A DNA stretch of 24,598 bases, taken from UHGV virus genome UHGV-0258679, one strand, 5' to 3'. Made by a program: the position numbers and the translations under genes. Position 1 is the stretch's first letter; each line of letters starts with the position of its first letter. Origin of the DNA: a virus. Positions 1 through 16,925 of the stretch are shown here, piece by piece. The notes under the pieces are model-generated. The model saw only the letters and a program-made list of their open reading frames with translations, did no database searches and had not been told where the DNA came from.

Positions 1-30
1 GTACCCACAATAACACGAGGGGGTACAACA

Positions 31-303
31 ATGAACATCGGTAAAGCAATCATCAACTACGCAGCACGTCGCAACATGGACATTACCTTGATTGGCGATG
101 AGACCGTAGCGTTCTGGGAAGCGGATAACGATTGTGAATGGATGTTCTCCTACATGATTGGTAATGATGGTTTCCTCCACTTTAAAGGCAATGTGTATCT
201 GCCGCAGGAGATTAAAGAAGAATTACCGGCGTGCATCGATACAGACAAGAAGCTGAAAGAAGTAATCAACTTTATCGCTAAAGAGTTTATCAGCAAGAAG
301 TAA
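31..303 (+). CDS. hypothetical protein, 90 aa
   Basis: Complete ORF with a strong RBS (GAGGGGG about 8 nt upstream of the ATG); no family recognised. Confidence 0.5.
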   Translation: MNIGKAIINYAARRNMDITLIGDETVAFWEADNDCEWMFSYMIGNDGFLHFKGNVYLPQEIKEELPACIDTDKKLKEVINFIAKEFISKK

Positions 304-315
304 GGCAGCAAAACA

Positions 316-702
316 ATGTTCAATATCATGATTCGTAAATTTGGTGAGATGACTTTCGAGAAAGCTGGTGTTGCGCGTACCGAAGAAGAAGCAATGGCCT
401 TAGTTCTGGTAGCACTGAGATCATCACCTGAGATTATCGACGCTGAATATGTTGCGGCTGAGGGTGAGATTAAAGAGATTAAAGCGGTGGCTAAGGAATT
501 AGGTGTTAAAGGTTTCCGTAAGCTGAAACTATCCCGCGAGACTTATGTCATTGGACAGCAAGGACAATACCTAGATGAGAATAGCGCGATTGTCCTACTG
601 AATAAGATCACCCGCTATGGTTTCCAGATTGAGCAATATAAAACGTGTTTCGAATTATACGAAAAAGGTTTGCTGGATACTCTGACCATCGTTCGTGCTT
701 AA
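316..702 (+). CDS. hypothetical protein, 128 aa
   Basis: ORF 13 nt after the previous stop; followed by a hairpin and T-run at 717-742; no motif recognised. Confidence 0.45.
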   Translation: MFNIMIRKFGEMTFEKAGVARTEEEAMALVLVALRSSPEIIDAEYVAAEGEIKEIKAVAKELGVKGFRKLKLSRETYVIGQQGQYLDENSAIVLLNKITRYGFQIEQYKTCFELYEKGLLDTLTIVRA

Positions 703-716
703 TTAATTTCTAATTT

Positions 717-742
717 GGTGGGTGCAATTCCCACCGCTTTTT
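717..742 (+). terminator. rho-independent terminator (GGTGGG / 7-nt loop / CCCACC, then GCTTTTT)
   Basis: Perfect 6-bp GC-rich stem with a T-run, directly after the stop of ORF 316-702. Confidence 0.55.
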
Positions 743-759
743 AAACTGGAGAATCAAAC

Positions 760-840
760 ATGTTAGCTTTTATCTCATTCGTGGGAGGTAGTCTCACAAC
801 TATGATTAGTCTTTCTTATATTGTCGTTAGTATGGGGTGA
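760..840 (+). CDS. very small hydrophobic peptide, 26 aa (MLAFISFVGGSLTTMISLSYIVVSMG)
   Basis: ATG at 760 with GGAG about 10 nt upstream; below the ORF-track length cutoff; its stop sits 3 nt before the next ATG. Confidence 0.25.
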   Translation: MLAFISFVGGSLTTMISLSYIVVSMG

Positions 841-843
841 GCA

Positions 844-969
844 ATGAAACAATTTCATGATGGCATTTCATCTAAGACATTCAAGAAAGAATATAGCGGA
901 TTGTGTATTAACTGGATTGATTTGATTGGTGCGGTTGTATTTGGTCTGGTAATTAGCATCAACTTTTAA
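844..969 (+). CDS. small membrane protein, 41 aa, C-terminal hydrophobic helix
   Basis: ATG at 844 preceded by GGGGTGA; C-terminal stretch WIDLIGAVVFGLVISINF; below the ORF-track cutoff. Confidence 0.3.
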   Translation: MKQFHDGISSKTFKKEYSGLCINWIDLIGAVVFGLVISINF

Positions 970-1010
970 TGATATAAATATATCGTAATTCATTCAAAGA
1001 GGATTCAATT

Positions 1011-1352
1011 ATGAAAAAGACTATCTACGCAATTATTGTTTCTGTGTGTGTTGGTGGCATCGGTGGATTTGTTTGTGGGTATGACTATTCCGATACTCAA
1101 CATCAAGAGACTATCCGGTCAAATAAGGCCGAGATTAAGGATCTGAATCAGGAGATTAGCCAGTTAGAAAATGCTCTCTCACTCAAAGACAGTGAATATA
1201 GCGAGGTTTATGCAGATAAACAAAAATATTGGAAAGAGAAAGATAATCTCGTTGTTTACGGGATGAAATTGTGTAAGAGCATGAAGGACGAGCGCAGTAG
1301 TTTAATGGAACTTGCCCTTAAAGGTAACGTGACCATCGACTTCAAAGACTAA
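1011..1352 (+). CDS. signal-anchored coiled-coil protein, 113 aa (N-terminal TM helix, periplasmic coiled coil)
   Basis: RBS AAGAGGA upstream; N-terminal hydrophobic segment IYAIIVSVCVGGIGGFV followed by a heptad-like charged region; no lipobox. Confidence 0.55.
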   Translation: MKKTIYAIIVSVCVGGIGGFVCGYDYSDTQHQETIRSNKAEIKDLNQEISQLENALSLKDSEYSEVYADKQKYWKEKDNLVVYGMKLCKSMKDERSSLMELALKGNVTIDFKD

Positions 1353-1382
1353 TTAATTCTAATAACAAGAGGAAATTCTACT

Positions 1383-1628
1383 ATGAAAAAGATTATCGCT
1401 GGTATCGTTCTTGCTCTGGGTTTGGTTGGTGCTGTAAATGCCGAACAATATGTACAGGGTGATAGTGTCAAGCGTGCTGCCGTTGCACCTTCTTTAAATC
1501 AACTGTGTACTGAATTAGCACAGGTTGCCGGAGTTGGTGACGATGACGACTTTATTACTGCGTGTGTATGGAGTCATATCGAGGATATTAATAAACGTGA
1601 TGCAAAACTAACTGGAAAGAAATATTAA
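1383..1628 (+). CDS. small secreted protein, 81 aa, with Sec-type signal peptide
   Basis: RBS AAGAGGAAA upstream; N-terminus MKKIIAGIVLALGLVGAVNA|EQ looks like a signal peptidase I site; two Cys and a DDDD patch in the mature part. Confidence 0.55.
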   Translation: MKKIIAGIVLALGLVGAVNAEQYVQGDSVKRAAVAPSLNQLCTELAQVAGVGDDDDFITACVWSHIEDINKRDAKLTGKKY

Positions 1629-1644
1629 TGACTTACTAACCAAT

Positions 1645-1682
1645 GCCCCTATCGTTATAATACGCGGTAGGGGCGTTTTTGT
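1645..1682 (+). terminator. rho-independent terminator (GCCCCTA / loop / TAGGGGC, then GTTTTTGTTT)
   Basis: 7-bp stem and T-run between the stop at 1628 and the recombinase start; could also be part of a recombinase attachment site (dyad symmetry). Confidence 0.5.
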
Positions 1683-1693
1683 TTGGAAATGGT

Positions 1694-3373
1694 ATGAAAA
1701 CTAAACTGTATTCGTATATTCGCTTCTCGTCTATGCGTCAGAATGATGGTTCGAGTTATGAACGACAAATCAGGATGGCGAGAGAGGTTGCGGCAAAGTA
1801 TGACCTTGAACTGGTAAATGATTATCAGGATCTGGGTGTATCTGCGTTTAAGGGTGCTAACTCCAAAACAGGGGCGCTATCTCGTTTCCTTGATGCAATT
1901 GGTAGATCCGTTCCTGTTGGTAGCTGGCTATTCATTGAAAACTTGGACCGCTTATCCCGTGCCGATATTGTCAGTGCGCAGGAGTTATTCCTTTCAATCA
2001 TCCGTAGGGGGATAACCATTGTTACTGGCATGGATAACAAGATCTACTCGCTGGATACTGTTACCGCTAATCCGATGGACCTGATGTTCTCCATCCTTTT
2101 ATTCATCCGTGGTAACGAGGAAAGTCAGACTAAGCGCAATCGTACTAACTCAAGCGCACTGATTAAGATTAAAGCCCATCAAGAAAATCCCCAGAATCCG
2201 GCAGTGGCAATCGAGGAAGTTGGAAAGAATATGTGGTGGACTGATACCACTTCCGGTTATGTGCTGCCTCATCCGGTGTACTTCCCTGTTGTTCAGGAGA
2301 TTGTGGAATTACGGAAGAATGGACGTTCAACCGCCGAAATACTGGATCACCTTAACGAGACATATACACCGCCACCAGCAGTAAGCAACAAGAAGCATTC
2401 AAAATGGTCACGGGCAATGGTTGAAAGGTTGTTCCATACCCGCGCTTTGATTGGTATCAAGGAGGTCTCTGTCGATGGTGTTAACTATGAGTTAAAGGAT
2501 TATTACCCTCGTGTTATTGATGATGCTACGTTCTATCACCTTAAGAAAAATATTGGTGCTAGAGCATGGAACTTTGGAGACAAGGAAGAAGTTAAACCGA
2601 TCCCCCTGCTTAGTGGTATTGGCCTATTGAAATGTGATCATTGCGGTTGCGCTATGGTTAAAGTGAAGGGAACGAACAAACGTTCTGACCAGTATCGTTA
2701 TACATGTGATGCGACCCGTTCACGTAGACTTGATTGCGAGCATCCAAACTGGAGTTTTCGAGGTGATCAATTAGAGAAAGCTGTATTGCAATTGCTGGCT
2801 GATAAAATCTGGATTGCTGAGGATAAGGCTAATCCGGTTCCGGCTTTGAAAGTACAGGTTGATGAGATATCACGCAAGATTGATAACCTGATTGCCCTTT
2901 CTGCTATGACAGGAGCAACGAAGGAGCTAGCCGATCAGATTACTACCCTCAATAGCGAGCGTGAAACACTCTACAATCAGATCAAGATGGCAGAAGAGGA
3001 AATGTATTCTGTGGACTCTCAAGGCTGGGAGAAGCTCGCAGAATTTGATTTAGAAGATGTTTATAACGAGGAACGACTAAAGGTCCGGTTTAAGATTAAG
3101 CAAGCTCTAAAGCGGATCGGGTGTAGCAGGATTGACAGGAATAAAAACTTGTTTGTACTGGAATACATCGATGGAAAGACCCAGAGAGTTGTAATAGAAA
3201 ATTCAAGAGGAACGAGGAAAGGACAAATCTTTGTCGATTTGAAAACTATCAATGATAGGCAGATTCTGGAGAGTAACGGGCTTGTTTTGCATCCATGTTT
3301 AGACATGCTGACAGATAAGAACTGGAAACCAGAAGAGGAAATACCAGGTCCATTACAGGAATTTGGAATTTAA
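1694..3373 (+). CDS. large serine recombinase (integrase-type: resolvase catalytic domain plus recombinase/zinc-ribbon/coiled-coil C-terminal region)
   Basis: N-terminus YSYIRFSSMRQ matches the catalytic YxRVSTxxQ serine motif; LDRLSR motif; downstream Cys cluster CDHCGCAM...YRYTCD...C is zinc-ribbon-like; about 560 aa. The ORF-track start at 1679 is TTG; ATG at 1694 is the more likely start. Confidence 0.85.
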   Translation: MKTKLYSYIRFSSMRQNDGSSYERQIRMAREVAAKYDLELVNDYQDLGVSAFKGANSKTGALSRFLDAIGRSVPVGSWLFIENLDRLSRADIVSAQELFLSIIRRGITIVTGMDNKIYSLDTVTANPMDLMFSILLFIRGNEESQTKRNRTNSSALIKIKAHQENPQNPAVAIEEVGKNMWWTDTTSGYVLPHPVYFPVVQEIVELRKNGRSTAEILDHLNETYTPPPAVSNKKHSKWSRAMVERLFHTRALIGIKEVSVDGVNYELKDYYPRVIDDATFYHLKKNIGARAWNFGDKEEVKPIPLLSGIGLLKCDHCGCAMVKVKGTNKRSDQYRYTCDATRSRRLDCEHPNWSFRGDQLEKAVLQLLADKIWIAEDKANPVPALKVQVDEISRKIDNLIALSAMTGATKELADQITTLNSERETLYNQIKMAEEEMYSVDSQGWEKLAEFDLEDVYNEERLKVRFKIKQALKRIGCSRIDRNKNLFVLEYIDGKTQRVVIENSRGTRKGQIFVDLKTINDRQILESNGLVLHPCLDMLTDKNWKPEEEIPGPLQEFGI

Positions 3374-3411
3374 GCGGCCTAAATCGACGTATAACGAGCT
3401 AAACACTTTAA

Positions 3412-3434
3412 GGGGTACATCTGTACCCCTTTTT
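3412..3434 (+). terminator. rho-independent terminator (GGGGTAC / loop / GTACCCC, then TTTTT), at a convergent junction
   Basis: GC stem with a T-run directly after the recombinase stop; plus- and minus-strand genes converge here. Confidence 0.6.
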
Positions 3435-3446
3435 AATTTAATTGTA

Positions 3447-4445
3447 TTAAAGAGCCTCTAAAGGGCTTAAATCGAGTTCTAAGTCTTCCGGTGTTAAATC
3501 AGCTAACGGTGCATTCATCCACTGCGATAAATCTCGTTCTATGTCTTCATCACTAATGTAGTTGTTCAGATTGATTGCGTTGGTATCATCAAAATACATT
3601 GGCTTAGATGGGTTGGTGTGGATGTATTCATTGATGAATGATTTAACATCTTTCAGCTTGCTAATCGGTAGCGTTTCTGTGAATCCGCTATTCATTACCT
3701 TACGTGGGATTTTCTTGCCCTGAATATTCTTTTTAATCCCCATTTCTAAATCACCAGCTTTCCATCCAATGTTAAACAAATGTGAGCATTCAAAGGTGAT
3801 TTTCTCGCTGGTGTGCTTCTGGTGTTCTCTTACCCGTTGCATCGGATCTTTGCGAGTGGTAATTCCATATTTGAAAAACTTCTCGCCAACACGAATTAGA
3901 TAAAAGTGCATAGGGCGCTGTGCAAACTTGTTTCTGATAACCTGTTTTCTACCATTCTGAATTGATTTAAGTACACCCCTAACCAAAGGGCATGTTAACC
4001 CGCCTTGTCTGCGGTTATTATGTAAATCACCTTTCTTGTGAATCTTTCCGTGGCACTTACAACGAAGAATTAGTTTAGTGTCAACACCCTGATAAGGTTC
4101 AGCCAGACCTAACACATCCCACCCTATCGGCTTGTAGAACTTGCGAGCGTTTTCTAAGTGTTCTTCTTCGGTAAATCTAAACTTCTTCTTAGGCGGTGAT
4201 ACTCTATCTTTGCCAGTAAACTGACCAGTTAGAACATGACTAATACATGGCGTTTTAACCTTTCCGTTAACTTCTATGCAAACTTTGGTGTTCTGGAATG
4301 GTTTCTTTACAGGAAGCACAAAACCACTGTATAACCATCCATGCACTTGACAAACTTTAATGATTCTGGTTTCATATTCGACCGGAGGGGTCGCACGTTT
4401 GCTTTTTGCGGTAAATTCGATATCCTTTGCTAAAGTAGTATTCAT
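3447..4445 (-). CDS. Zn-finger plus GIY-YIG-like (T5orf172-like) nuclease-domain protein, 332 aa; candidate homing endonuclease or DNA-binding regulator
   Basis: N-terminal half has Cys/His pairs (CQVH, C...C..H, CKCHGKIH); C-terminal half has HFYLIRVGEKFFKYGITTRKDPMQRVREHQ, resembling the GIY...YIG...R...E core; acidic C-terminal tail. Assigned from motif resemblance only. Confidence 0.45.
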   Translation of the reverse strand: MNTTLAKDIEFTAKSKRATPPVEYETRIIKVCQVHGWLYSGFVLPVKKPFQNTKVCIEVNGKVKTPCISHVLTGQFTGKDRVSPPKKKFRFTEEEHLENARKFYKPIGWDVLGLAEPYQGVDTKLILRCKCHGKIHKKGDLHNNRRQGGLTCPLVRGVLKSIQNGRKQVIRNKFAQRPMHFYLIRVGEKFFKYGITTRKDPMQRVREHQKHTSEKITFECSHLFNIGWKAGDLEMGIKKNIQGKKIPRKVMNSGFTETLPISKLKDVKSFINEYIHTNPSKPMYFDDTNAINLNNYISDEDIERDLSQWMNAPLADLTPEDLELDLSPLEAL

Positions 4446-4480
4446 AGTAGTGAATCCTCAATAAAATAATATTCACTACT
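4446..4480 (-). promoter_or_regulatory. perfect 10-bp inverted repeat (AGTAGTGAAT, 15-nt spacer, ATTCACTACT) abutting the start codon of the 332-aa gene
   Basis: Seen directly in the sequence; the spacer contains the probable SD (GAGG); a TATAAAT -10-like hexamer lies just upstream on the minus strand. Confidence 0.4.
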
Positions 4481-4491
4481 ATTTATAAGAA

Positions 4492-4893
4492 TTAATTATT
4501 GTAGTTTTGGAAACCAGTAAGATCGCAAAATGAATCAGTGTCATGTGCTGGGGAACGATGTTCTGCTTCGTCAGAGAAAATGCTTGCTACCGGAGATTCC
4601 ACTTTAATTTCCGGTGCTTCTTCAACATCTGACTTAACTTCTTCGATCACTGGTTCAACTGCTGGAGATTCTTCTTTTGTTTCTTCAATGACGATCTCAG
4701 GTTCTTTCATTGCTTCAACCAGAGACGGATCAACTTCGTCGAATACCACTTTATCATCTGCGGTATATTTGTCTATAATGAAAAAATGGTCAGAAATATA
4801 GCTAACGTCGCCAGCATATTCTAACAAAAAAGCGCCCACCAGAGGCGCTTTTGTTTTATCCATTCCACCGTGATTTTTTTGATCTGGAATCAA
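4492..4893 (-). CDS. acidic hypothetical protein (Glu/Asp/Pro-rich C-terminal half); true start uncertain
   Basis: ORF from the track; its first 10 codons overlap the peptidase gene and a terminator hairpin (4830-4858) lies inside its 5' end, so the real product may start later (for example at MKEPEIV). Confidence 0.3.
   Translation of the reverse strand: MIPDQKNHGGMDKTKAPLVGAFLLEYAGDVSYISDHFFIIDKYTADDKVVFDEVDPSLVEAMKEPEIVIEETKEESPAVEPVIEEVKSDVEEAPEIKVESPVASIFSDEAEHRSPAHDTDSFCDLTGFQNYNN
4830..4858 (-). terminator. rho-independent terminator on the minus strand (AGCGCC / loop / GGCGCT, then TTTTTT)
   Basis: GC stem plus a 6-T run immediately after the M15 peptidase stop codon. Confidence 0.6.
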
Positions 4894-5209
4894 TATGCGT
4901 AAAGGTTTTATATTTTCCTAAGCCGTATTGAGTAGGATATTTCCCATCAAGATAAGCATGAACAATATCAGGCGAGACACCCTTGATAACAATGTCAGCC
5001 GCACGGCCTCGAACGTGATAGCTATTGGCTGCCCCGCCTACATTCTTGTTATGAGTCGGGCAACGGTTGCCACTGTTAATAATCACTGGTTTACCGAAGT
5101 GCTCTCGTACATCCTCAAGAATCACCAGTAATTCAGCGTCGATTGTATCATAATCACATTTTCCGCATTTACATTTAAATTCCTTGCGAGAAAAATGCTT
5201 ACTTAACAT
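4856..5209 (-). CDS. peptidase M15 family (M15A, YcbK/DUF882-like) zinc peptidase; candidate endolysin
   Basis: Motifs SGNRCPTHNKNVGGAANSYHVRGRAADI and FTHIDSR match the conserved M15 zinc-ligand signature; RBS AGGGGGT; small size (117 aa) typical of phage M15 lysins. Confidence 0.75.
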   Translation of the reverse strand: MLSKHFSRKEFKCKCGKCDYDTIDAELLVILEDVREHFGKPVIINSGNRCPTHNKNVGGAANSYHVRGRAADIVIKGVSPDIVHAYLDGKYPTQYGLGKYKTFTHIDSRSKKSRWNG

Positions 5210-5218
5210 ATTACCCCC

Positions 5219-5566
5219 TTAGATCATTTCGAAGATATAACCAATAAAGCGCATACCCTTGATATAATAAGGAGCAGTGCCTACACACACCGCGCGTGCA
5301 TCGCCCAGACAGTTAAAGCTATAAGGATTAACCACATCAACTTCTTGCCCTACACGAAAACGATACTTAGGACGTTTAGCCAATGTAGCGACACAAAACA
5401 CGGTCCCTTTTTCATGATCGCGGATACATTCTTTATATTGTTTATGTTTAACTCTCTTCGCCTCAAAATCATGAGTCATTGATTCTGGGCTAATGCCATT
5501 AATAAAAATACCGGAAAGCTGATCGACCGGATAAGTAGGAAATTCAGTAAAAATATTTTTAGCCAT
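5219..5566 (-). CDS. hypothetical protein, 115 aa, translationally coupled to the M15 peptidase
   Basis: RBS GGGGGT; its stop overlaps the RBS of the peptidase gene. Confidence 0.5.
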   Translation of the reverse strand: MAKNIFTEFPTYPVDQLSGIFINGISPESMTHDFEAKRVKHKQYKECIRDHEKGTVFCVATLAKRPKYRFRVGQEVDVVNPYSFNCLGDARAVCVGTAPYYIKGMRFIGYIFEMI

Positions 5567-5604: not shown

Positions 5605-6288
5605 TTAAACGTATTTCATGCGCGATTTAATGTGCTTATTGATGTTTTCAAGCATCATTGCTTCGTTGCTTTCCCACGATCCTAGCGTCGAATAACGAGT
5701 AGAAATTTTATCCGATTTAACGGCAACAATTCGCTTGCTCTGTTTCTGTATGCGTTTCTCTAAGCGACGTTTTGCCACCGCCGATCCATTCCTAGCGCGT
5801 TTGGTTCGGGATTTCTTAGGCTTGTACTTCTTCATGATAAAAGTCCCTTCCTTGTTCTCTACCTTGATGAAGTTGCCGTTTTCGAGGTTACGCATCATCT
5901 TACCGCCTTTGATGGCCTTAATGTTCCCGTGGGCGTCTAAGACCTTGCCGTTAGCGATTGGAACTAGCTTATTGATTTTGCCACCATCGAAATAGTGTTT
6001 CAGATAGTCATCCTGACTGCCGATCTTCTTGTCCTTATCCCTTGCGCCCTTGATGAAGATTTGGTGTCTCGTCCCTGATCGGTTCTTGTAGTTGGTATTA
6101 CCTACCGCTTGCTGAGTCCAGCGAGTAGGTCTATCAACATTCTTGTTAATCTTCTTCTGGAGTGCTCTGGAAGCAAAGATCGCCCCTTCCCCTAGTGCCC
6201 TTTCGAATGTATTGGTTGCCTTTTCAGACCATTGCCTCAACGCTTTCTTAGTCCTTAGAGCGTTTCGTTTATTGGTACTGGTTGCCAT
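5605..6288 (-). CDS. highly basic (Lys/Arg-rich) hypothetical protein, 227 aa
   Basis: RBS AGGGGGC; strongly basic composition throughout; no motif recognised. Confidence 0.5.
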   Translation of the reverse strand: MATSTNKRNALRTKKALRQWSEKATNTFERALGEGAIFASRALQKKINKNVDRPTRWTQQAVGNTNYKNRSGTRHQIFIKGARDKDKKIGSQDDYLKHYFDGGKINKLVPIANGKVLDAHGNIKAIKGGKMMRNLENGNFIKVENKEGTFIMKKYKPKKSRTKRARNGSAVAKRRLEKRIQKQSKRIVAVKSDKISTRYSTLGSWESNEAMMLENINKHIKSRMKYV

Positions 6289-6478: not shown

Positions 6479-6757
6479 TTATTTTTGTTTGAGTATGTCG
6501 AGAACTTGGTCAAATTTGGCGTCCATCGCAACCACTTTCTTCTCTATACCGTGTAGTGTTTGTTCCATTTGGTAAACACGTTCAGCAATCTGAGTATGGT
6601 TATTCTGCATCGTCTCAAACTTCTGGTTTAACAATGCGTCGCTGGATTCCAATTTCGACAATCTATTTTCTGTGGCTAATTGATTTCGGTGAAGTCTCCA
6701 AAGCCCACCACAAATTAAGGCGATAACACCGATACCGCCATATATAATTTCAGTCAT
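6479..6757 (-). CDS. signal-anchored coiled-coil membrane protein, about 92 aa (i-spanin-like or superinfection-exclusion-like architecture)
   Basis: Start moved to the internal ATG (MTEIIYGG...) preceded by GGGGGCGTA; N-terminal TM segment IIYGGIGVIALICGGLW then a predicted coiled coil. Confidence 0.45.
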   Translation of the reverse strand: MTEIIYGGIGVIALICGGLWRLHRNQLATENRLSKLESSDALLNQKFETMQNNHTQIAERVYQMEQTLHGIEKKVVAMDAKFDQVLDILKQK

Positions 6758-6799
6758 TACGCCCCCGATATTTTTATAATTTAATGGCAAAATTATTTA

Positions 6800-6842
6800 G
6801 ATAAAAATAATCCCGCCTAACTCAAAAGAATTAAGCGGGATT
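6800..6842 (-). terminator. rho-independent terminator after the tail tip gene (8-bp stem AATCCCGC/GCGGGATT, T-rich tail)
   Basis: Inverted repeat seen directly in the sequence, followed on the minus strand by ATTTTTAT. Confidence 0.5.
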
Positions 6843-6860
6843 AATTATAAAAATTAAATT

Positions 6861-9800
6861 TTAAGAAACAGAAATACCAGTAGCGGCTTTCTTAGTTACC
6901 ATTACCGTTAGATCGCTGATATATGCATTTGGGTTATAGTCGTTAACGCCCTTACAGTAAACTTCAAAAGTCATTGTTACTGCCCCGTGTCCGGCTGGCA
7001 TGTCAATAACTCCACTGTACATACAGCCAGAAGTTGCAGTGCGATCATATAGAACACCACCATTTTTCTTAACGATTAGTCGGCAAGTATCCCAAAGATC
7101 GCCACTACTGTTGCCACGACGTTCAGACCCGTTATGATGAATCGCTGGAATCACTATTTGGCGATCGAATGGATGATCATCTTCGACCCTTACAGTGATT
7201 GCACCATCAGGCCAGTTTGGTTGGCGATGTGGGAAACTCCTACCAACCACTTTCACGAAGTCACCACGCACCTGATTAGCATCAAGCATACCCAAAATGC
7301 GGCAACTTGAATTAATCGTTACGTTGTTCATTTCGCCGGAATCAGCCACCAAATGACCACGAATATTAGCGTGTCTAAAATGACAAGTGCCATCTTTGCC
7401 AATATACCATCCATCGTTACCATTCCAGTTATAAGACTGGATATAGTTACCGATTTTAGCATTATCGATAGAGCCATCAATAATATGTCCCGTTCCGATC
7501 TGTGCGTGTTGGATGTGAGCGCCGTTAATCTGGGCTGTGCCGATCTTAGCCGTGGTAATAGCCGCATCACTAATCTGGGCTGTGCCAATTGCAGCATTAC
7601 GAATCATCGCATTATCGAGATAAACTTTGTTATCTTCGATGCCAAACGGACAAACTTCTGATCCGTCTTGTGGAGCTACCGCGATTTTATCAGCCGTAAA
7701 GATGATTCTCGTCGGTTCTGCCGGATCATTGGTTGCGCTCATATGAATACCGGCCACGCGACCATCTGCATTAACCGCCAGATTATATTTGCTGTTAATG
7801 GTTCCCTTCAAAGCATCGATTTTTACATCTGCTTCCTGATTCACACCAGCAATCTTGCCATCCATTTCTACCCGAACTTGATCAATCTTACTTGCGCTTG
7901 CTGCCTCACTGGTAGCAATTGCTTGTTTCAGGGTAGTAGCAGATGCGCTAACTTCTTTGGTGATATCGCCTTTCAGTTCAGCTTTAACCTGATCAATCTT
8001 AGTTGCGCTGGCTTGCTCACTGGTAGCAATCAGACTCTTGAGAGTATCGGCTGAGGCTTGGACCGTCTGCCCTGTCTCGGTAGTAATCTGTTTATGCATT
8101 GCATCAATCTTAGCATCGGCATTAGCGCCAGCTTGAGCAATAGCATCCGCGATGGTTTCATCTAAGCGATCTTGTAAACCAATCAGGTCTTCCAGTGCTT
8201 CTTTGTCCTGATCGTCCCAGCTAATGGTAGATTTCATTTGCATGAAATACGGTTCAGACCAAACAGCATCATCCATACCGAAAATATCATAGTGAGCACC
8301 ACGGATATAATAATCACCGTCAGCCAAATCAAAGGAAGTATGACTAACGCTATTGGTAGTCACTGCCCTTGCATCGGAGAAAGTATTATCGGTTGCATAC
8401 TGGATGATTGACCCTGCATAGTCATGTTCTACGTCATCCGCCCAGCTAACAAACGCAGTATTAAAGCCACCACGCGCACTAAAACCTTTCATCGGCTTAT
8501 GTTGTGGGTTGATAGCCACTAAACGCGCTGGGGCGCTCTCTGAGTTGTTATAGCCCTTAACGGATACTTCTACCGTCAATTCACGGGAAAGGCCGTTAAA
8601 CTGGTTCATATCAAGCGTATAAGTCCATGATTCAGGATCGCGGGTACGGTACTGAATAGACTTACCAGCCTTGTTAGTTACCTTGATAATGTATGCTTCA
8701 AACAGGTCACTAAACTTGTTAGCTTCACCGTTGATCATCACATCTAATTGTTGCTGGTTATCCCATTCGATAATCAGATCGTTGCCTTCGAAAGTACCAG
8801 GTGAACTACCCTGATTTTTGATGCGGATCGCTGGCGTAGGCAGTTCATAGGTAACTTCTGGATTCTGGTTAACCAATTCCACCCATTCGGAACGAGCAAT
8901 AATACCGAAAGCACAAACGCGGTAATCGTAGGAACGATCTTTAGCCAGTGCATTGATATTGAAAATTTGCTGTGAAGTCTGTCCCAGCTTAATCCAGTTA
9001 GGTGATCCACTCACACGGTAATCAATCTGGAAACCGTAGCGGTTGAAATCTTCCGGTGCATCCCATGTCAAAGTTACGTTTTTACCGTGGATTGTCTCAC
9101 CAGTTGCCTTAATTCTGAAATTAGTCGGTTTCTGTACTGTCATTGAATCCGGTAAACCAGTAGGTCTATTGTCTGGATTCGCCGCATAGTTCAGGTCAGT
9201 ATAAACCTGAGAATTATATTCTGTGGCGGTGATAGTCATCATCCCAGCAATACCAGAATCAATAGAGCGATCAATTGCAGTAATACGCCAAAGTGAATTA
9301 TTCAGTTTTAATTCATCATAGGTTACGCTAATAACATCCCAAACTTCGGCAGTGAATGCGTCAGTAGTCATAAAGCTGATAACCTGAGTGATACGAGATT
9401 TATTTCGTTCTACACTCGCTAGTTTATCAATCTGGGCTTTAGACTTAACAAAACGATATTCAATATCTTTAGCGATAATTCGACCATCTTGACGAATAGT
9501 AGCATCGTTTTCAGCATCAGCCGGATAACGCAGCATTTGCTCTGAATAGTCGATTGATGGTTCTTGATACATCGCGTTAATGGTATTGAAATAACCGTTA
9601 GTGCCACCTGTTTTCAGTGATACTTTTCCCATCATGATATTGTCTTCATTGAAGGTATGCTTAACAATATCAGGAGCATCCAGTTTCAGGGTAATTCTTC
9701 CAAAGGATTCGAACATTACCCCGCCGAAAGTCTGCATAAGACTGGTCAAGTTCTCTTTAAAGCTGGCGTTCGGATCACATGCACCGTTGGAATGTAGGTC

Positions 9801-10610
9801 CATCTGGCGTACTTGTTTACGCACTTTCAGGAATGAATCAACGTTAATGTTTTCAATTGGTACGGATAAGCCATATTTTTCATTTGTTAGGTAGTGGAAA
9901 ATCTGATCCACGCCGTTAGTGCTAGCCTCAATAGCATTGGTTTCGAGGTTACGGATTTTTAAGCCCATAACATCGACTGCCACTTGGCTATTTGGTTGAA
10001 GGATATCAACACCAGCAGCCAAAGATTTATCGTCACGACGTAACACAATACACATGGTCGCAATGCCGTTACCCTGATACCGATCATCCCAATCTGCGCC
10101 CAAATGATGTTTAGCCAGATCCAATGCAGTGTTAGGATTTTTACCAGTGCGAAACTCGACTTCTAACACTTTGCGGTATTCGTCTTTAATGTTTCCTTTA
10201 TCGAGAATACCATCACGAATTGTCATATTCTGACTAATGAGAACATTTTTATTATCGATGTGTAGTGCTTTAAAATGATCAATCTCACCTTCGGAAATAG
10301 CAAAAATTTGTACCAGTTTGTTGTTTTCACGTTGTGAAATTGCTTTGTAAACGCAGATTGCACCCGTGCGGGTAGTACCGAAAAGAACGGGTAATACTGT
10401 CTTAGGATCGTTTGATGTTCCTAGTGTCACCGCATTATCTGGGCTTTGTACTTTCGGTGTTTTTGGTGCGCCTACAGTGGAAGCGATCAAGGTCATTGCA
10501 CCAGCAGCCATACCGATAGCGACTGCGGTCATAACAGAAAATGTTGCAGCAGCAGCCATCCCAGCAGACGCACCAGCAATAACCGCGCCTACTAATATTT
10601 CAAATCCCAT
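6861..10610 (-). CDS. tail tip / central fibre protein, 1249 aa: lambda gpI-like C-terminal segment fused to a gpJ-like host-specificity protein
   Basis: N-terminus (Gly/Ala-rich hydrophobic stretch then APKTPKV...VLPVLFG) resembles the C-terminal part of lambda gpI; FN3-like segment in the middle; C-terminal ...DDHPFDRQIV...DMPAG...VMVTKKAATGISVS aligns with the receptor-binding C-terminus of lambda J as I recall it. Confidence 0.8.
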   Translation of the reverse strand: MGFEILVGAVIAGASAGMAAAATFSVMTAVAIGMAAGAMTLIASTVGAPKTPKVQSPDNAVTLGTSNDPKTVLPVLFGTTRTGAICVYKAISQRENNKLVQIFAISEGEIDHFKALHIDNKNVLISQNMTIRDGILDKGNIKDEYRKVLEVEFRTGKNPNTALDLAKHHLGADWDDRYQGNGIATMCIVLRRDDKSLAAGVDILQPNSQVAVDVMGLKIRNLETNAIEASTNGVDQIFHYLTNEKYGLSVPIENINVDSFLKVRKQVRQMDLHSNGACDPNASFKENLTSLMQTFGGVMFESFGRITLKLDAPDIVKHTFNEDNIMMGKVSLKTGGTNGYFNTINAMYQEPSIDYSEQMLRYPADAENDATIRQDGRIIAKDIEYRFVKSKAQIDKLASVERNKSRITQVISFMTTDAFTAEVWDVISVTYDELKLNNSLWRITAIDRSIDSGIAGMMTITATEYNSQVYTDLNYAANPDNRPTGLPDSMTVQKPTNFRIKATGETIHGKNVTLTWDAPEDFNRYGFQIDYRVSGSPNWIKLGQTSQQIFNINALAKDRSYDYRVCAFGIIARSEWVELVNQNPEVTYELPTPAIRIKNQGSSPGTFEGNDLIIEWDNQQQLDVMINGEANKFSDLFEAYIIKVTNKAGKSIQYRTRDPESWTYTLDMNQFNGLSRELTVEVSVKGYNNSESAPARLVAINPQHKPMKGFSARGGFNTAFVSWADDVEHDYAGSIIQYATDNTFSDARAVTTNSVSHTSFDLADGDYYIRGAHYDIFGMDDAVWSEPYFMQMKSTISWDDQDKEALEDLIGLQDRLDETIADAIAQAGANADAKIDAMHKQITTETGQTVQASADTLKSLIATSEQASATKIDQVKAELKGDITKEVSASATTLKQAIATSEAASASKIDQVRVEMDGKIAGVNQEADVKIDALKGTINSKYNLAVNADGRVAGIHMSATNDPAEPTRIIFTADKIAVAPQDGSEVCPFGIEDNKVYLDNAMIRNAAIGTAQISDAAITTAKIGTAQINGAHIQHAQIGTGHIIDGSIDNAKIGNYIQSYNWNGNDGWYIGKDGTCHFRHANIRGHLVADSGEMNNVTINSSCRILGMLDANQVRGDFVKVVGRSFPHRQPNWPDGAITVRVEDDHPFDRQIVIPAIHHNGSERRGNSSGDLWDTCRLIVKKNGGVLYDRTATSGCMYSGVIDMPAGHGAVTMTFEVYCKGVNDYNPNAYISDLTVMVTKKAATGISVS

Positions 10611-11029
10611 TATTCACCCCCGAATCTATAAACTTGTTCATAGTCAATGTCTGAAACAGGAATGGTCATCCAGATACCATCTTCTTCAACGAGGCCATAA
10701 CCGGAATAATGAGGAACTACGGAATAATATTTGCGGTTTCCTAATTTGTGGGCTGTGACCAGTAAGTCGCCGTCCTGTAAATCATCAGTGACTAATTTGA
10801 AATGTTTCTTAATTGGTTGAAGGATATTTGAATACCCGCTTAATTCTTTGCAGATTTTCAAGCCTTCTTCTTTAGTTGAATATTTTTTATAAAGAGAATT
10901 ATATAGGTCAGTACCAGCGAGAATATCGATGATCTTACATGCAATTAGATTGCAATCATTCTCGCCTTGAACGAACTCCTGACCTATTAAAGAATTGATG
11001 TAATCGGTGATAAGCCTAGTTTTTAGCAT
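10610..11029 (-). CDS. minor tail protein, NlpC/P60-like (lambda gpK C-terminal-domain-like)
   Basis: Start chosen at MLKTRL, preceded by GGAGG; GENDCNLIACK resembles the NlpC/P60 catalytic-Cys region; stop overlaps the start of the J-like gene. Confidence 0.45.
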   Translation of the reverse strand: MLKTRLITDYINSLIGQEFVQGENDCNLIACKIIDILAGTDLYNSLYKKYSTKEEGLKICKELSGYSNILQPIKKHFKLVTDDLQDGDLLVTAHKLGNRKYYSVVPHYSGYGLVEEDGIWMTIPVSDIDYEQVYRFGGE

Positions 11030-11075
11030 GTTGAATACCTCCATGCTGTTATTTACTAGGCTTAAGGAGAAGGGA

Positions 11076-11729
11076 TTATTTCTTCGATGAATGCCACTTG
11101 CTTTCGCTATTCCACTTCCCGGCACGGGAGAAGAATAGATCGTTCTCGTTTCCAACATAGGATCGGTGGATACCATCGGAGGCATGACTTCGAGCGTTTT
11201 TATCTAGAACTTCCCAGATACTATTAAGCTGAAATTCTGATTCGTTTTTACACTCATCATCTTCATGTTCGATGTTAATCCCGATGGAATCGACTACCCC
11301 ACGGAAAACAGGGTAAGTGGTTTCAACCTTGCCCGTGTTAGGGTTCAGGAACACCATTTCGATTTTCACATCTGATTTATCGAATTGCTTGTTTCGAATC
11401 AGGGTAATGTATTCCTCGCGAACGTTAGAAACGGTTACGTTAATCCCGTTGTTGTTGATCTCCTTCTCTTCGGTATTCGATGAGATTTGAAGAAAGTCAC
11501 CCGTTGCGAGATATGTAAATCCATTATAGTCCAAATCGAAATACCCATCTGTAAGCCGTAGAACGTCCCCTGACGCGGTAATCACTTCGATAATGTGAAA
11601 CATCGATCCAGTGGAAAAAAGCTGCGGTAGCGTCAATCTAGACACATTCTGACCTGTCTGGTCGTTGTATACCTCGATGAAGTCCAGATTAGTGCATAGT
11701 TTGCTGAATGATTCCTGAATAGTTGCCAT
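11076..11729 (-). CDS. minor tail protein (gpL-like by position), 217 aa
   Basis: Synteny between the tape measure and the K/J-like genes; start overlaps the upstream stop; no motif recognised with confidence. Confidence 0.4.
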   Translation of the reverse strand: MATIQESFSKLCTNLDFIEVYNDQTGQNVSRLTLPQLFSTGSMFHIIEVITASGDVLRLTDGYFDLDYNGFTYLATGDFLQISSNTEEKEINNNGINVTVSNVREEYITLIRNKQFDKSDVKIEMVFLNPNTGKVETTYPVFRGVVDSIGINIEHEDDECKNESEFQLNSIWEVLDKNARSHASDGIHRSYVGNENDLFFSRAGKWNSESKWHSSKK

Positions 11730-12289
11730 TATACATTCTCCACTAATTCAAATTTCATCTTGCCGATCTGGGCGATCTTCCAATCGATATTTTCAGTTTT
11801 GAGAACAAATTCGCCTTCTACGTTCTGATACTTGATCACCTCACCAGCCAGGACGTTTTGACGCAAGTTAGGGAAGAGTTTCATTTCACCACCTGATTTC
11901 ACGTCTTCGGTGATCGTGTAGATTTTCTTGTGGTTCTCAAACTGGATGATAGTTCCCGCTTTCAGTGTTCCGGTGAAGTTGGATAGTCTTACCTTACGCC
12001 CACCGCGAGCAGTACCAGCAGCAGCCGTAACCATCTGGCGTACATCACCTGTATATTTTGAAAAGTAAGACAGTGGCACACTAAAAGGACGACCAAAAAG
12101 GTGACGTGCTACAAATTCTTTTACTTCGTTAATATCCTGAGCCATGAAATTAGCTGTAAATTCTGCTTCATAAAAATGAATACCAGTAAAGCGACGCTGG
12201 AACTTACCAGAAATAGATTGCGCCTTGAAGAAAGGCTGTTTTGATTTAAGAGTAAAATCTGTGATTTTAATATTCTTGGATTTGAACAT
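11729..12289 (-). CDS. minor tail / distal tail protein (gpM-like by position), 186 aa
   Basis: Lies immediately downstream of the tape measure gene in the tail module. Confidence 0.4.
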   Translation of the reverse strand: MFKSKNIKITDFTLKSKQPFFKAQSISGKFQRRFTGIHFYEAEFTANFMAQDINEVKEFVARHLFGRPFSVPLSYFSKYTGDVRQMVTAAAGTARGGRKVRLSNFTGTLKAGTIIQFENHKKIYTITEDVKSGGEMKLFPNLRQNVLAGEVIKYQNVEGEFVLKTENIDWKIAQIGKMKFELVENV

Positions 12290-12339
12290 AGAAAAGCCCC
12301 CATAGTTTTATGATTATTTATGACTATGGGGGCTTTTAA

Positions 12340-14682
12340 TTACATCTTACGGCGCTGTGCGTCTTCTACCGCCTGAGCAACTAACTTAGCGTGACGTTTG
12401 ATAGCATCCATGACCATCTTGTCTGAGCTATTAACGTTGCCGTTAATGTTCAAAGGCGCATTAACTTCAATCGGCTGAGAGTTACCACCGCCTGATTTTT
12501 GAGCAGCAAGGAAGTCTTTCAAATCGCCGTTAGTACGCTGATCAACTACTCGTTCACCCTTATCAAGCAACCATGTACCCTCACGCGGGATGTTATCGAT
12601 ACCATCATGAGCCATACCGCTAACATTAGTAGACTTGATGTTTGCAATGTTCCCCATGTTCTGAGAAACAGCCAATGCAGCAGCAGCGATCTTTTGTCCT
12701 GTGGTGACGTTGGTCGGATCGTTCCATGCATCGGTAGCAGCCGTCCACATGTTCACCGTCGCTTGTCCAATGGAGAATGCCTTATGAGCATTGAAAGCCA
12801 TCTGCATAGCCTTTGTGTTTTCTTGCCCGAAGAGAGTCATTGCAGCAGCAAAACCGCCATACATATCATCGGCTATTGACTGGCGAGCATCAGCATATTT
12901 CTTCTCAATTGCAGCCATTCGTTTTTGATGGTTTTCATTGAGTTTTTCTAATGCTTCCATCCGTTTAGCCGGATCGGTGATCCCATCAATCTTGAGTTTA
13001 TCGGTTTTATAATCTTGTTCCGCTTCCGATTTCTCTTTATCGATTGCATTAAATTTAGCAAACGGGTTATTTGAGTCTTGATAATCAAATCCACTGGTTA
13101 ATTGATTGGATTTAAAACCATCCATTCCCTGTAAATGACTATCAATCTGAGAATAGTTTTGCTCGGTATCATTCACACGACGCATATATTCTTCGTAGGA
13201 GATAGCTTTACCATCAAGTAACCGTTTATGGCTTTCTAACTCGTTGTCCCTGATTTGTTGCAAAACTGTTAAGGCATTCAAAGCATCAACCGGATCAGCA
13301 CCCAGCATCATTTTATAGATGTTTTCTGCGTTCTGGTCTAACAGTTGCTGACGTTTAGCGGCTGCGTCTTGCTGTGAGATTAAGCCCAGATCTAAAGCAG
13401 TGTCCAAATCTTTCAAGCTGGCTTCTAACTGCTTGTTTTGAGAAGCAATAGACGCGGCTGTCTGACCGTGCAATCTAACATCAAGAGCATTCAGCTTTTT
13501 AATTGCATCTTCACGCTGTTTCTGTGCTTTTTCTGCGGCCTTCCTTGCTTCTTCTGCCGCTTTTTCTGCTTCTTCTTGTTCTTTTTTTGTTGGTCCAGTG
13601 ACGCCTCCACCTTGACCCGTTGGGGTAAATCCGGTATCCGATTTATTTCCAGTGATAGTAATTACCGGATCGCCGTTTTTATCACGGGTAACTCCGTCTT
13701 TATCCACCCAACGATCAGGATAATTTGGTTTATTGTTGAAGCTGGCTTGTCCACCTGCTAGACCAGTAGAACTATAACCATGCTTGTTAATAAAACCACC
13801 GTTAGCCATAGCCATATTCTGGCGAGCTTTTTCAAACCTTTCATTAAAAGTCTTTAATGCGTTAAATAAAGCGGTCTTTTCCCAATCTTTATCAAACCAG
13901 TTGTATAACTTGTTCATCCCTTCAACAACTGGATTTAGCGCATTTGCAGCCATACCCTTTAAGTTATCGGTAAGGGTATCCATATTTTTAGAGAATTTAT
14001 TATATTCTTCGGCTGTATCATTGGTGATTTTAACAGTTTGCTGATTAATGGCGTTTACAGCTTCCTGATAAGATCCGTATTTCTGCAATTCATCAGCCAT
14101 ATGACTTGAATCACTGGCTAACGATTCCATCATAAACTTAACATCAGCGATAGACGCACCAGCCTTGCGCATATCATAGAAGACCTTGATCGCCGCTTTC
14201 ATCCCGCCTTGTGGATCGTTCATAAACTCGGCATAATCTTTAATCTTCAAACCTACACTTTCTAGGTCATCTTCAATACCGCCACCATTACGCCACGCAT
14301 CAGCCAGTTTATCTAAGGTGTCTTTGTTAATATCACCAAATTTCTCAACGGTTAAGCCAGTACCGGAGAATTGCTTCTCTAATTTCTGGAGTGTTTCGAC
14401 GGTTAAACCAGTTGCTTTTGAAACTTCGCTGTATTCCTTTACATAATCACCGATGGCATTTGCAGCAGAGACAGCACCAGCAGCCAGACCAACAAAACCA
14501 CCAGCAGCCAAAGCAAGCGATCCACCAGTTCCGCGAAGGGTTCCACTTAAACTAGATAAACCACCAGACAAATCAAGATTCATTGCCCTTTCTGAAAGGT
14601 TATCAAGCATGTCAATCGCTTGGTTGGTACTTCTCCTTAGACCGTCATTATTCCCTTCTATTGTTACTATATGTCTTGTCAT
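12340..14682 (-). CDS. tail tape measure protein, 780 aa
   Basis: Position after the chaperone pair; Gly/Ala-rich hydrophobic segment (LALAAGGFVGLAAGAVSAANAIG), long helical/coiled-coil regions and an EEAEKAAEEARKAAEKAQKQRE stretch typical of tape measure proteins. Confidence 0.8.
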   Translation of the reverse strand: MTRHIVTIEGNNDGLRRSTNQAIDMLDNLSERAMNLDLSGGLSSLSGTLRGTGGSLALAAGGFVGLAAGAVSAANAIGDYVKEYSEVSKATGLTVETLQKLEKQFSGTGLTVEKFGDINKDTLDKLADAWRNGGGIEDDLESVGLKIKDYAEFMNDPQGGMKAAIKVFYDMRKAGASIADVKFMMESLASDSSHMADELQKYGSYQEAVNAINQQTVKITNDTAEEYNKFSKNMDTLTDNLKGMAANALNPVVEGMNKLYNWFDKDWEKTALFNALKTFNERFEKARQNMAMANGGFINKHGYSSTGLAGGQASFNNKPNYPDRWVDKDGVTRDKNGDPVITITGNKSDTGFTPTGQGGGVTGPTKKEQEEAEKAAEEARKAAEKAQKQREDAIKKLNALDVRLHGQTAASIASQNKQLEASLKDLDTALDLGLISQQDAAAKRQQLLDQNAENIYKMMLGADPVDALNALTVLQQIRDNELESHKRLLDGKAISYEEYMRRVNDTEQNYSQIDSHLQGMDGFKSNQLTSGFDYQDSNNPFAKFNAIDKEKSEAEQDYKTDKLKIDGITDPAKRMEALEKLNENHQKRMAAIEKKYADARQSIADDMYGGFAAAMTLFGQENTKAMQMAFNAHKAFSIGQATVNMWTAATDAWNDPTNVTTGQKIAAAALAVSQNMGNIANIKSTNVSGMAHDGIDNIPREGTWLLDKGERVVDQRTNGDLKDFLAAQKSGGGNSQPIEVNAPLNINGNVNSSDKMVMDAIKRHAKLVAQAVEDAQRRKM

Positions 14683-15926: not shown

Positions 15927-15980
15927 TATTCTTTTCCTTCTATTTTAAACAATAGGGTACATACCCGTAATTCTATTTAT

Positions 15981-16283
15981 TTAGCGGTTGCTCAAGCGTC
16001 TATAACGAAGATGAGCGATCCCCCTATTTGTGCTAACTGTAATTACTGCTCCTTGCGGTGCAATACAAGAATGGATCTGTCCCCAATCATGACCCTTATG
16101 GCTTCCAGAAACACAAAAACCATGAATAAACAATTCAGAGTCACCGCCGCCACCACCGGAAGAATGAGCACAGAATGAAATAGTCCCGAAAGCGTCGGCT
16201 GTCCAACCGTTAGGAATATCAAACCATCCTTGATTTGCTTTACCCGCCCTATTCCCCAAAGCGCCATCTACCCAAAATGCCAT
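15981..16283 (-). CDS. glycine-rich small protein, paralogue 3 of a tandem triplet (100 aa)
   Basis: Shares M-x-x-W...(W/Y)FDIPNGW...G-rich...V(S/T) with the two upstream ORFs; its ATG overlaps the upstream stop by 1 nt (TAATG). Confidence 0.55.
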   Translation of the reverse strand: MAFWVDGALGNRAGKANQGWFDIPNGWTADAFGTISFCAHSSGGGGGDSELFIHGFCVSGSHKGHDWGQIHSCIAPQGAVITVSTNRGIAHLRYRRLSNR

Positions 16284-16588
16284 TAGTGCATTCTCCTGAA
16301 TTTGAAATAATGCAAACTACCTTTACCCAATGTAAAGCTAACGGTAGCACCAGCGCCAACTAAAGAACTAGCGCCCCAACTCCCAGCATCACCAGCATGA
16401 TGGCCTGATTCAATCAATCCATTTACAGCCAATTCAGAATCAAGATCACCAGCACCGTTAATGGCTTCCATATGAGCAAAAACAATTCCGCATGAATCAG
16501 TAACCCAGCCGTTGGGGATATCAAAATATCCACCATTAGCCCAAATACTAATAGCGTTTGACATTCTTTGATTTATCCATCCAGCCAT
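16283..16588 (-). CDS. glycine-rich small protein, paralogue 2 of a tandem triplet (101 aa)
   Basis: Contains YFDIPNGW and ends ...YFKFRRMH; start lies 2 nt after the upstream stop. Confidence 0.55.
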   Translation of the reverse strand: MAGWINQRMSNAISIWANGGYFDIPNGWVTDSCGIVFAHMEAINGAGDLDSELAVNGLIESGHHAGDAGSWGASSLVGAGATVSFTLGKGSLHYFKFRRMH

Positions 16589-16590
16589 AA

Positions 16591-16887
16591 TTAAAACTCC
16601 ATGAATTTAAAATATTCAACACCACCTTCACCCCCTAAACCAAAGGAGACGGTGCAGCCAGCAGGAACAAACGAATTTATAGTAGATCCCCAATTGGTCC
16701 CACCACGACGACGAGCAACGGTCAAACCATCTACGTTAATATGTGCATCAGACCACCCACCACCAGCATTATGACGCATTACAGCGACACCAGCACGAGC
16801 AGTACCATAGCCGTTAGGAATATCAAATACATGCCATTTTAAAGCATCGATTTTAGTATTAATTTCACTACTTACCCAATATCCCAT
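16591..16887 (-). CDS. glycine-rich small protein, paralogue 1 of a tandem triplet (98 aa)
   Basis: Contains VFDIPNGY and ends ...YFKFMEF; RBS AAGGA upstream; follows the tail fibre gene. Confidence 0.55.
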   Translation of the reverse strand: MGYWVSSEINTKIDALKWHVFDIPNGYGTARAGVAVMRHNAGGGWSDAHINVDGLTVARRRGGTNWGSTINSFVPAGCTVSFGLGGEGGVEYFKFMEF

Positions 16888-16925
16888 ATAAGAATCCTTA
16901 GCGGAGATTTCTCCCCGCTTTCCAA

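Follow-up and report, generated by a model that had tools for sequence, protein, structure and literature searches.

The 24,598-nt stretch of viral DNA analysed here, virus genome UHGV-0258679 (hereafter the window), covers the left 24.6 kb of a temperate, siphovirus-like prophage of ~37 kb that is integrated in an enterobacterial chromosome, and the gene int near its left end encodes a predicted large serine integrase of 559 amino acids (aa). Comparison of lysogens with uninterrupted host chromosomes makes it very probable that this integrase inserted the prophage into the host gene ycdX by way of a 2-bp crossover, TT. A sequence-only reading of the window had reported a serine recombinase of ~560 aa with a YxRFSSxxQ motif and a zinc-ribbon region in an otherwise lytic-looking phage module, and had taken it to imply either a temperate or integrative lifestyle or a programmed rearrangement. 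The description of the protein as a phage-type integrase and the integrative lifestyle were both borne out; the lytic appearance was not, since the window proved to be one end of an integrated prophage.

The integrase gene and the crossover in ycdX

Of 5426 complete E. coli chromosomes, at least 62 carry window nt 1-4500 at 90-99% identity. In the lysogen UTME-9, the ~37-kb element is bracketed by both halves of ycdX, i.e., a fragment annotated 'missing N-terminus' on the left, which ends ~10 nt before window base 1, and a fragment annotated 'missing C-terminus' on the right. The prophage encodes a terminase, portal, capsid-protease fusion, tail proteins, tape measure, tail fibres, endolysin, a Rha/Ant-like regulator and a Nu1-like small terminase, and its gene set for packaging, head, tail and lysis is complete. 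The int gene lies 1.7 kb from the prophage end and, as the sequence-only reading had noted, converges on the structural and lysis block, here minus-strand lysis and tail genes. Likewise, int was 0.9-2.5 kb from a provirus end in each of 28 IMG/VR proviruses. Searches with PGAP, Pfam and PHROGs found no other integrase or transposase in the whole prophage.

In the program-made list of open reading frames (ORFs), the int frame (1679 to 3373, plus strand) opens with TTG. Since the PGAP annotation of a homologue agrees with a start at the ATG at 1694, and since all family members begin MK(T)KLYSY, we take this ATG as the predicted start, giving a protein of 559 aa with the following parts:

1694 to 3373 (including the stop codon), plus strand: int, predicted large serine integrase, 559 aa (Pfam, PHROGs, alignment, AlphaFold2 model, Foldseek)
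1694 to 2173, plus strand: catalytic (resolvase) domain and long alpha-E helix, aa 1-160 (Pfam, alignment, AlphaFold2 model)
2174 to 2809, plus strand: recombinase domain and zinc-ribbon domain (RD+ZD), aa 161-372 (Pfam, alignment, co-variation with target)
2810 to 3370, plus strand: coiled-coil motif and C-terminal alpha/beta region of ~100 aa (AlphaFold2 model)

Three Pfam domains were recognised above their curated cut-offs: Resolvase (PF00239, aa 6-153, E 1e-14), Recombinase (PF07508, aa 198-287, E 4e-9), which follows the alpha-E helix, and Zn_ribbon_recom (PF13408, aa 310-368, E 1e-10). PHROGs assigned the gene product to phrog_95 'integrase' (E 2.5e-63). The catalytic motifs R-x-S...Q and D-R-x-x-R are both present, the former within YIRFSSMRQ, which places the nucleophile, Ser12, at nt 1727-1729. 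In an alignment of 44 homologues with identities down to 27%, residues R10, Q16, D85, R86 and R89 and the four zinc ligands (C314, C317, C338 and C348) were invariant, and S12 was kept in 43. The domain search and catalytic-residue alignment that the sequence-only reading had called for therefore returned a recombinase fold with the Ser and Arg residues intact. A phmmer search with the single sequence against the PDB returned nothing at E <= 1e-3; the family profile reaches integrases of the phiC31, TP901-1 and Bxb1 types, with DRxxR aligned to that of phiC31 Int.

The AlphaFold2 model of the integrase (mean predicted local distance difference test score, 80.8) comprises, in order, the catalytic domain, long alpha-E helix, RD, zinc ribbon, a coiled coil formed by antiparallel helices (aa 382-406 and 410-437) and an alpha/beta C-terminus. 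The top Foldseek matches of the model were full-length serine integrases (E 1e-18 to 1e-15), among them an Int complexed with its recombination directionality factor (RDF), Bxb1, phiC31 and LI, and the model aligned over ~550-580 columns with full-length structures of Bxb1, phiC31 and other serine integrases. It also superposes on the RD structures of LI (4kis) and phiC31 (4bqq). Judged by its sequence and predicted fold, the protein is an intact large serine integrase that carries every sequence- and site-level feature of the family. More than 750 database proteins belong to this integrase family, with 'recombinase family protein' as their sole annotation, and we found no publication on the integrase or its attachment (att) sites. 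It is an uncharacterised enzyme of an otherwise ordinary kind, and a serine integrase at a prophage end is expected biology.

To map the crossover, the attL and attR junctions were aligned to uninterrupted ycdX, the empty site being present in 5369 genomes; the comparison of junctions with related genomes, which the sequence-only reading had proposed, thus located both of them in ycdX. Identity to attB on the left side stops at ...GGGATT (...TTTGGGATT) and on the right side begins at TTTCC... (TTTCCGGG...), and the overlap of attL, attR and the empty site is exactly TT. The crossover lies 13-14 nt to the left of window base 1, such that only the outer part of one phage arm, P', is inside the window:

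1 to 26, no strand assigned: outer P' arm as in attL (GTACCCACAATAAC...) (comparison of attL, attR and empty ycdX; dyad partner in the P arm; same arm in hicB lysogens)

The inner 12 nt of the P' arm (GCCAAATATCAT) and the TT itself fall outside the window, left of base 1. The bacterial site, attB, is ...CATATTTGGGA-TT-TCCGGGATGGC..., which falls near codon 134 of the 245 in ycdX, i.e., mid-gene; in its 50-bp form it reads …CATATTTGGGA-TT-TCCGGGATGGCT…, written also as CTATTTCATATTTGGGA-TT-TCCGGGATGGCTTATTATATGC. The phage site, attP, was rebuilt from the junctions as …GGGTTGACTACATTCGGG-TT-GCCAAATATCATGTACCCAC… (60-bp form, TTATTTTGGGTTGACTACATTCGGG-TT-GCCAAATATCATGTACCCACAATAAC; junction k-mer, ACATTCGGGTTGCCAAATAT). 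Its arms form an imperfect inverted repeat centred on TT, matching at 17 of 25 positions, and an arm match this good occurs at just 4 of 37,790 centres in the prophage. CC occupies positions 2-3 from the core in five of the six half-sites at ycdX and hicB, the exception being the B' half of the ycdX attB (CG), and the loose consensus is GGnTTnCC. A 2-bp non-palindromic crossover, a dyad attP, negligible homology between attP and attB and insertion within an ORF are together the signature of a serine integrase.

An alternative is that the protein is a DNA invertase or resolvase that carries out a programmed rearrangement of the phage genome, such as tail-fibre switching or dimer resolution. The shared serine-recombinase catalytic domain, a weak match to phrog_125 'DNA invertase' (E 1.7e-11) and mosaic tail-fibre genes nearby are all consistent with such a role. 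However, the Hin, Gin, Cin and Pin invertases are proteins of ~190 aa with a C-terminal helix-turn-helix that act on inverted crossover sites on either side of an invertible segment, unlike the 559-aa protein with RD, ZD and coiled coil described here, and no second att-like site was present in the window when up to 3 mismatches were allowed. Inverted repeats in the window are short, imperfect and not att-like, no invertible segment was found, and gene order was the same in all lysogens sampled. We therefore regard a programmed rearrangement, which the sequence-only reading had entertained, as the least probable of the explanations considered here, with hardly any weight, and retain integration of the prophage as the role of int.

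Sister prophages and target choice

The full-length attL junction was present in 12 genomes, and in ~15 more this junction adjoins a phage interior that has diverged. Among the matches listed, the same phage arm was joined to truncated hicB in 22 further genomes; in this class the prophage is bracketed by both hicB halves and hicA is intact. A third class, represented by E. coli 39EVA and E. fergusonii, splits codB, and relatives from Salmonella (71-76% identity) occupy the homologous position in ycdX. Insertion interrupts all three host genes (ycdX, hicB and codB) mid-gene, and int has the same position in the hicB and codB sister prophages as in the window. BS74R-D is a double lysogen, with one copy in ycdX and one in hicB, and its two integrases, 87% identical overall, differ in both catalytic-domain allele and RD+ZD type. 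Extra matching places were also seen in UTME-9.

Host sequence is invariant as far as TT in all classes, and phage polymorphism (GCC, CCC, ACC) sets in from the next base. This boundary pins the crossover family-wide, with its placement in hicB made by analogy and that in codB provisional. The P' arm consensus across classes is TT-sCCwAATATmAT-nnn-CCCAC-AATAAC, and the attP arms are identical in the UTME-9 (ycdX) and 2014EL (hicB) phages.

Identity was then compared domain by domain across 13 integrases. The ycdX-type integrase of the window and the hicB-type integrase of 2014EL are 92% identical, and 32 of their 43 differences fall within aa 161-372, such that the RD+ZD are 85% identical and the catalytic domains 99%. 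Within a class, RD+ZD identity was 98-100% (hicB, codB, Salmonella) or 88-100% (E. coli ycdX), and between classes it was 59-85%. Two catalytic-domain alleles, ~81% identical to each other, were distributed independently of target gene. Since RD+ZD type tracks the target gene, the pattern is that expected if RD+ZD read attB, a function established structurally for other large serine recombinases (LSRs). Judging from these alignments, attB choice appears to be set by RD+ZD (aa 161-372), and the shuffling of catalytic alleles relative to RD+ZD type indicates domain-level mosaicism in nature. It is conceivable, though we hold this tentatively and at somewhat less than even chances, that these elements form a natural retargeting series, in which integrases with a common attP consensus, one TT core and almost the same catalytic, coiled-coil and C-terminal parts came to use at least three targets by exchange or divergence of nothing but the RD+ZD cassette.

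Prophages of the hicB class (5896-6012 of locus L004 and 30241-30771 of locus L005) remove the C-terminal part of the antitoxin gene and keep the 5' two-thirds of hicB together with the toxin gene, hicA. The truncation may affect regulation of the toxin-antitoxin module, and it is a matter of speculation that insertion into hicB with hicA intact constitutes a prophage switch on that module.

Several observations weigh against the conclusion that int integrated this prophage and remains active. No repressor, replication gene or RDF was recognisable in the prophage with PGAP, Pfam or PHROGs, so the element may be partly defective. The rebuilt attP is not directly adjoining int, the two being separated by 1.7 kb that hold four cargo genes. 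A search of IMG/VR, JGI metagenome contigs and complete E. coli genomes for an intact attP, as expected of an excised or circular form, was negative, and in the E. coli genomes no place covered at least 80% of the query; therefore, current excision competence is unproven. At hicB, attP and attB share 7 bp (TTGCCAA), and the crossover is put at TT by analogy. Finally, the evidence of recombination by the integrase comes from genome comparison.

The lack of a recognisable repressor, replication protein or RDF and of an excised attP would be in keeping with a cryptic or defective prophage that the integrase did integrate and in which int is now a relic, and IS1 insertions in some copies point the same way. 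However, int was full-length and without stops in all 13 copies compared, with its catalytic residues intact; the occupation of three host genes and the double lysogen BS74R-D argue for repeated integration; and the packaging, head, tail and lysis genes are all present. We consider a relic int unlikely, while giving it more weight than any other alternative.

The distance between attP and int would also suit an accessory LSR, comparable to YbcK of lambdoid prophages, in an element integrated by some other, unrecognised enzyme. Indeed, the proteins in the phage collection that come nearest to it are YbcK-like and belong to lambda-like phages (31.6% identity over 81% of the query), and lambdoid phages with YbcK-type genes presumably use a tyrosine integrase. 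Against this stand the finding of int as the one integrase or transposase gene of the whole element, the 2-bp crossover and dyad attP, which are serine-integrase signatures, and the co-variation of RD+ZD type with the host target gene. An accessory role for int is thus very improbable, and integration by the int product itself is the explanation that we favour.

By analogy with known serine integrases, from which the chemistry, synapsis and RDF requirement are taken, integrase dimers would bind the ~50-60-bp attP on the circularised phage genome and attB inside ycdX, and synapsis would occur through the coiled-coil motifs. Ser12 would then cut all four strands at the central TT, after which the subunits would rotate and religate the ends, to leave a prophage flanked by attL and attR and a split ycdX. 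Recombination of attP with attB would proceed independently of host factors, and excision would need a cognate RDF.

Hairpins, small open reading frames and cargo around int

Two hairpins flank int, and four small ORFs lie between att and int:

1642 to 1686, plus strand: terminator-like hairpin (13-bp stem, 8-nt loop) and T-run, directly upstream of int (RNA fold, conservation)
3410 to 3431, no strand assigned: predicted bidirectional intrinsic-terminator-like hairpin between the convergent int and a 332-aa nuclease-like gene (fold z = -3.1 on the plus strand, -3.9 on the minus strand)
31 to 303, plus strand: 90-aa ORF (99% in E. coli ycdX and hicB phages, 65% in Salmonella, absent from codB-type phages)
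316 to 702, plus strand: 128-aa ORF (sole small int neighbour in all four lineages sampled)
1011 to 1628, plus strand: two small ORFs, 113 aa and 81 aa, variable cargo (other genes in their place in sister phages)

The sequence-only reading had pointed to a dyad, GCCCCTA...TAGGGGC (1645-1670), as a terminator, part of an attachment site, or both. The dyad lies inside a hairpin (1642-1677) that is followed by TTTTTGTTT. The RNA folds at -25.6 kcal/mol (z = -4.3), a value that none of 200 shuffles reached, and the loop contains TATAAT (1656-1661). The stem, TATAAT and T-run are invariant among the E. coli ycdX and hicB, E. fergusonii and Salmonella elements, in which the 5' flank is unrelated and int has diverged to as little as 71-76% identity. 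Since the hairpin is invariant, covariation is informative neither way, and its conservation exceeds what a plain terminator needs. Fold, T-run and conservation uphold the terminator part of the earlier suggestion, and the hairpin most likely terminates transcription from the att-proximal cargo genes, insulating int. The dyad was rejected as an att site, since all lysogens have this DNA uninterrupted, 1.65 kb in from the prophage end. More speculatively, int may have a promoter here with the loop's TATAAT as its -10 element, in which case transcripts would begin inside the 3' arm and escape termination. A scan for the sigma-70 consensus called no promoter upstream of int at its thresholds, so the argument for a promoter in the loop is one of conservation. 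Rfam gave chance-level matches only for the hairpin region (E 0.4-0.8, below gathering scores). The hairpin at 3410-3431, by its predicted fold on both strands, is a putative bidirectional terminator.

No RDF was recognisable among the four ORFs between att and int, in line with the sequence-only reading, which had nevertheless proposed the small upstream ORFs as candidates. On reading the sequences, the 113-aa ORF has an N-terminal hydrophobic segment and a coiled coil and the 81-aa ORF a signal-peptide-like N-terminus; their products read as exported or membrane proteins, they are not conserved with int, and they are unlikely RDFs. In the 128-aa ORF, no signal peptide or hydrophobic segment was noted on reading the sequence, and it had no Pfam, PHROG or PADLOC match. 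Of the proposed candidates it is the one that we keep, as a weak RDF candidate by inference. RDFs are conserved neither in sequence nor in position and have been found via AlphaFold-multimer pulldowns (PMC12286644). The counterpart of the 128-aa ORF in Salmonella consists of two ORFs in swapped order, a C-terminal-like part of 81 aa first and an N-terminal-like part of 62 aa later (4978-5223 and 5633-5821 of locus L087). PADLOC assigned neither int nor its neighbours to a defence system; the 113-aa ORF (1011-1352) had two marginal matches, to DRT-associated SLATT and RmuC-like models (~E 5e-4), which probably reflect no more than the composition of its hydrophobic and coiled-coil stretches.

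On the other side of int, the interval up to the endolysin gene (window 3447-4893) is a variable cargo hotspot. In the window, it holds the 332-aa nuclease-like gene (phrog_681) and an Inh-like gene, and in sister phages (7700-11600 of loci L086-L090, and loci L091-L097) GIY-YIG nucleases, a UvsW-like helicase, a UvsY-like protein, CapR-like proteins or IS1. The 'early' region of UTME-9 (6700-14600 of locus L002, outside the window) holds just the Rha/Ant-like regulator, the Nu1-like small terminase and an LprI-like protein, and ~1.25 kb of the same locus (9430-10687) is without an annotated gene.

A DNA search of 50,697 phage records found no related genome, just patches in common with T4-like phages, and a collection of species-representative genomes yielded only relatives at <=40% identity, which were unusable for att comparison; the Salmonella and E. 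fergusonii relatives were taken from contigs that encode such proteins. The patches, window 4509-4766 and 15965-19593, have 77-97% nucleotide identity to virulent T4-like phages (Krischvirus, Tequatrovirus). The first is part of the 'inh' prohead-protease-inhibitor-like gene, and the second covers the distal tip of the 1176-aa tail fibre (gp37-like) and small downstream ORFs. Identity at this level points to recent gene exchange between the temperate siphovirus-like prophage and T-even-type phages. The 668-aa major capsid protein (22267-24273) also had a weaker match to a head-maturation protease family. Its best match among deposited phages is just 43.8% identical (Escherichia phage DCP80), which underscores that this lineage has no cultured representative.

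Relation to known serine recombinases

The integrase shares its catalytic domain, alpha-E helix, RD and zinc ribbon with inserted coiled coil with the integrases of Bxb1, phiC31, Listeria A118/LI, TP901-1 and the SPbeta SprA type, together with the R-x-S...Q and D-R-x-x-R motifs. Those systems likewise use a short dyad attP and a 2-bp non-palindromic crossover, with almost no homology between attP and attB past the core and insertion within an ORF. However, identity to the characterised enzymes is just 13-18% in structural alignments, and the protein differs from them in its Gram-negative, enterobacterial host, in the extra C-terminal alpha/beta region of ~100 aa and in the 1.7 kb of cargo genes that separate attP from int. 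The best coliphage protein matches, the YbcK-type LSRs (YbcK of DLP12 and proteins of phages 4A7, Perceval and others), are of the same three-domain type, but their genes are interior, at ~40 kb of 49-kb lambda-like records, whereas int is the sole recombinase gene and lies at the prophage end. LSRs of Gram-negative temperate phages are also known from the Burkholderia phages Bcep22, Bcep176 and JC1 (~28-30% identity over 85-94% of the query), where they are annotated as integrase or serine recombinase; phage types and hosts differ, and the comparison covered the proteins.

In the regulatory switches (active lysogeny) formed by A118 in comK and SPbeta in spsM, a host gene is split by the prophage and is made whole again, with no lysis, when the prophage leaves it precisely and under regulation. 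Splitting of the host gene was observed here for ycdX, hicB and codB; the negative searches for an excised attP speak neither for nor against regulated excision. The literature that we found on ycdX or hicB as targets of serine integrases was limited to one table entry from 2013, for a Cronobacter sakazakii prophage at ycdX. The catalogue of LSRs and att sites of Durrant et al. (2022; PMC10083194) follows the same logic as our comparison, with attB and attP derived from prophage boundaries versus empty sites. The supplementary text of that catalogue, in the possibly incomplete form available, matched neither the protein motif nor the att cores, and an earlier listing there is possible.

Reading the window as part of a prophage establishes how a phage lineage that is otherwise undeposited lives, which hosts it uses (E. 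coli and relatives) and where it inserts, and a concrete attP, attB and TT core are now available for an uncharacterised Gram-negative integrase. The close natural variants with different targets are material from which to learn how attB is read and to engineer new specificities. If the retargeting series is real and the RD+ZD cassette alone is sufficient, these integrases would provide a compact, evolution-tested template to reprogram the target choice of serine integrases.

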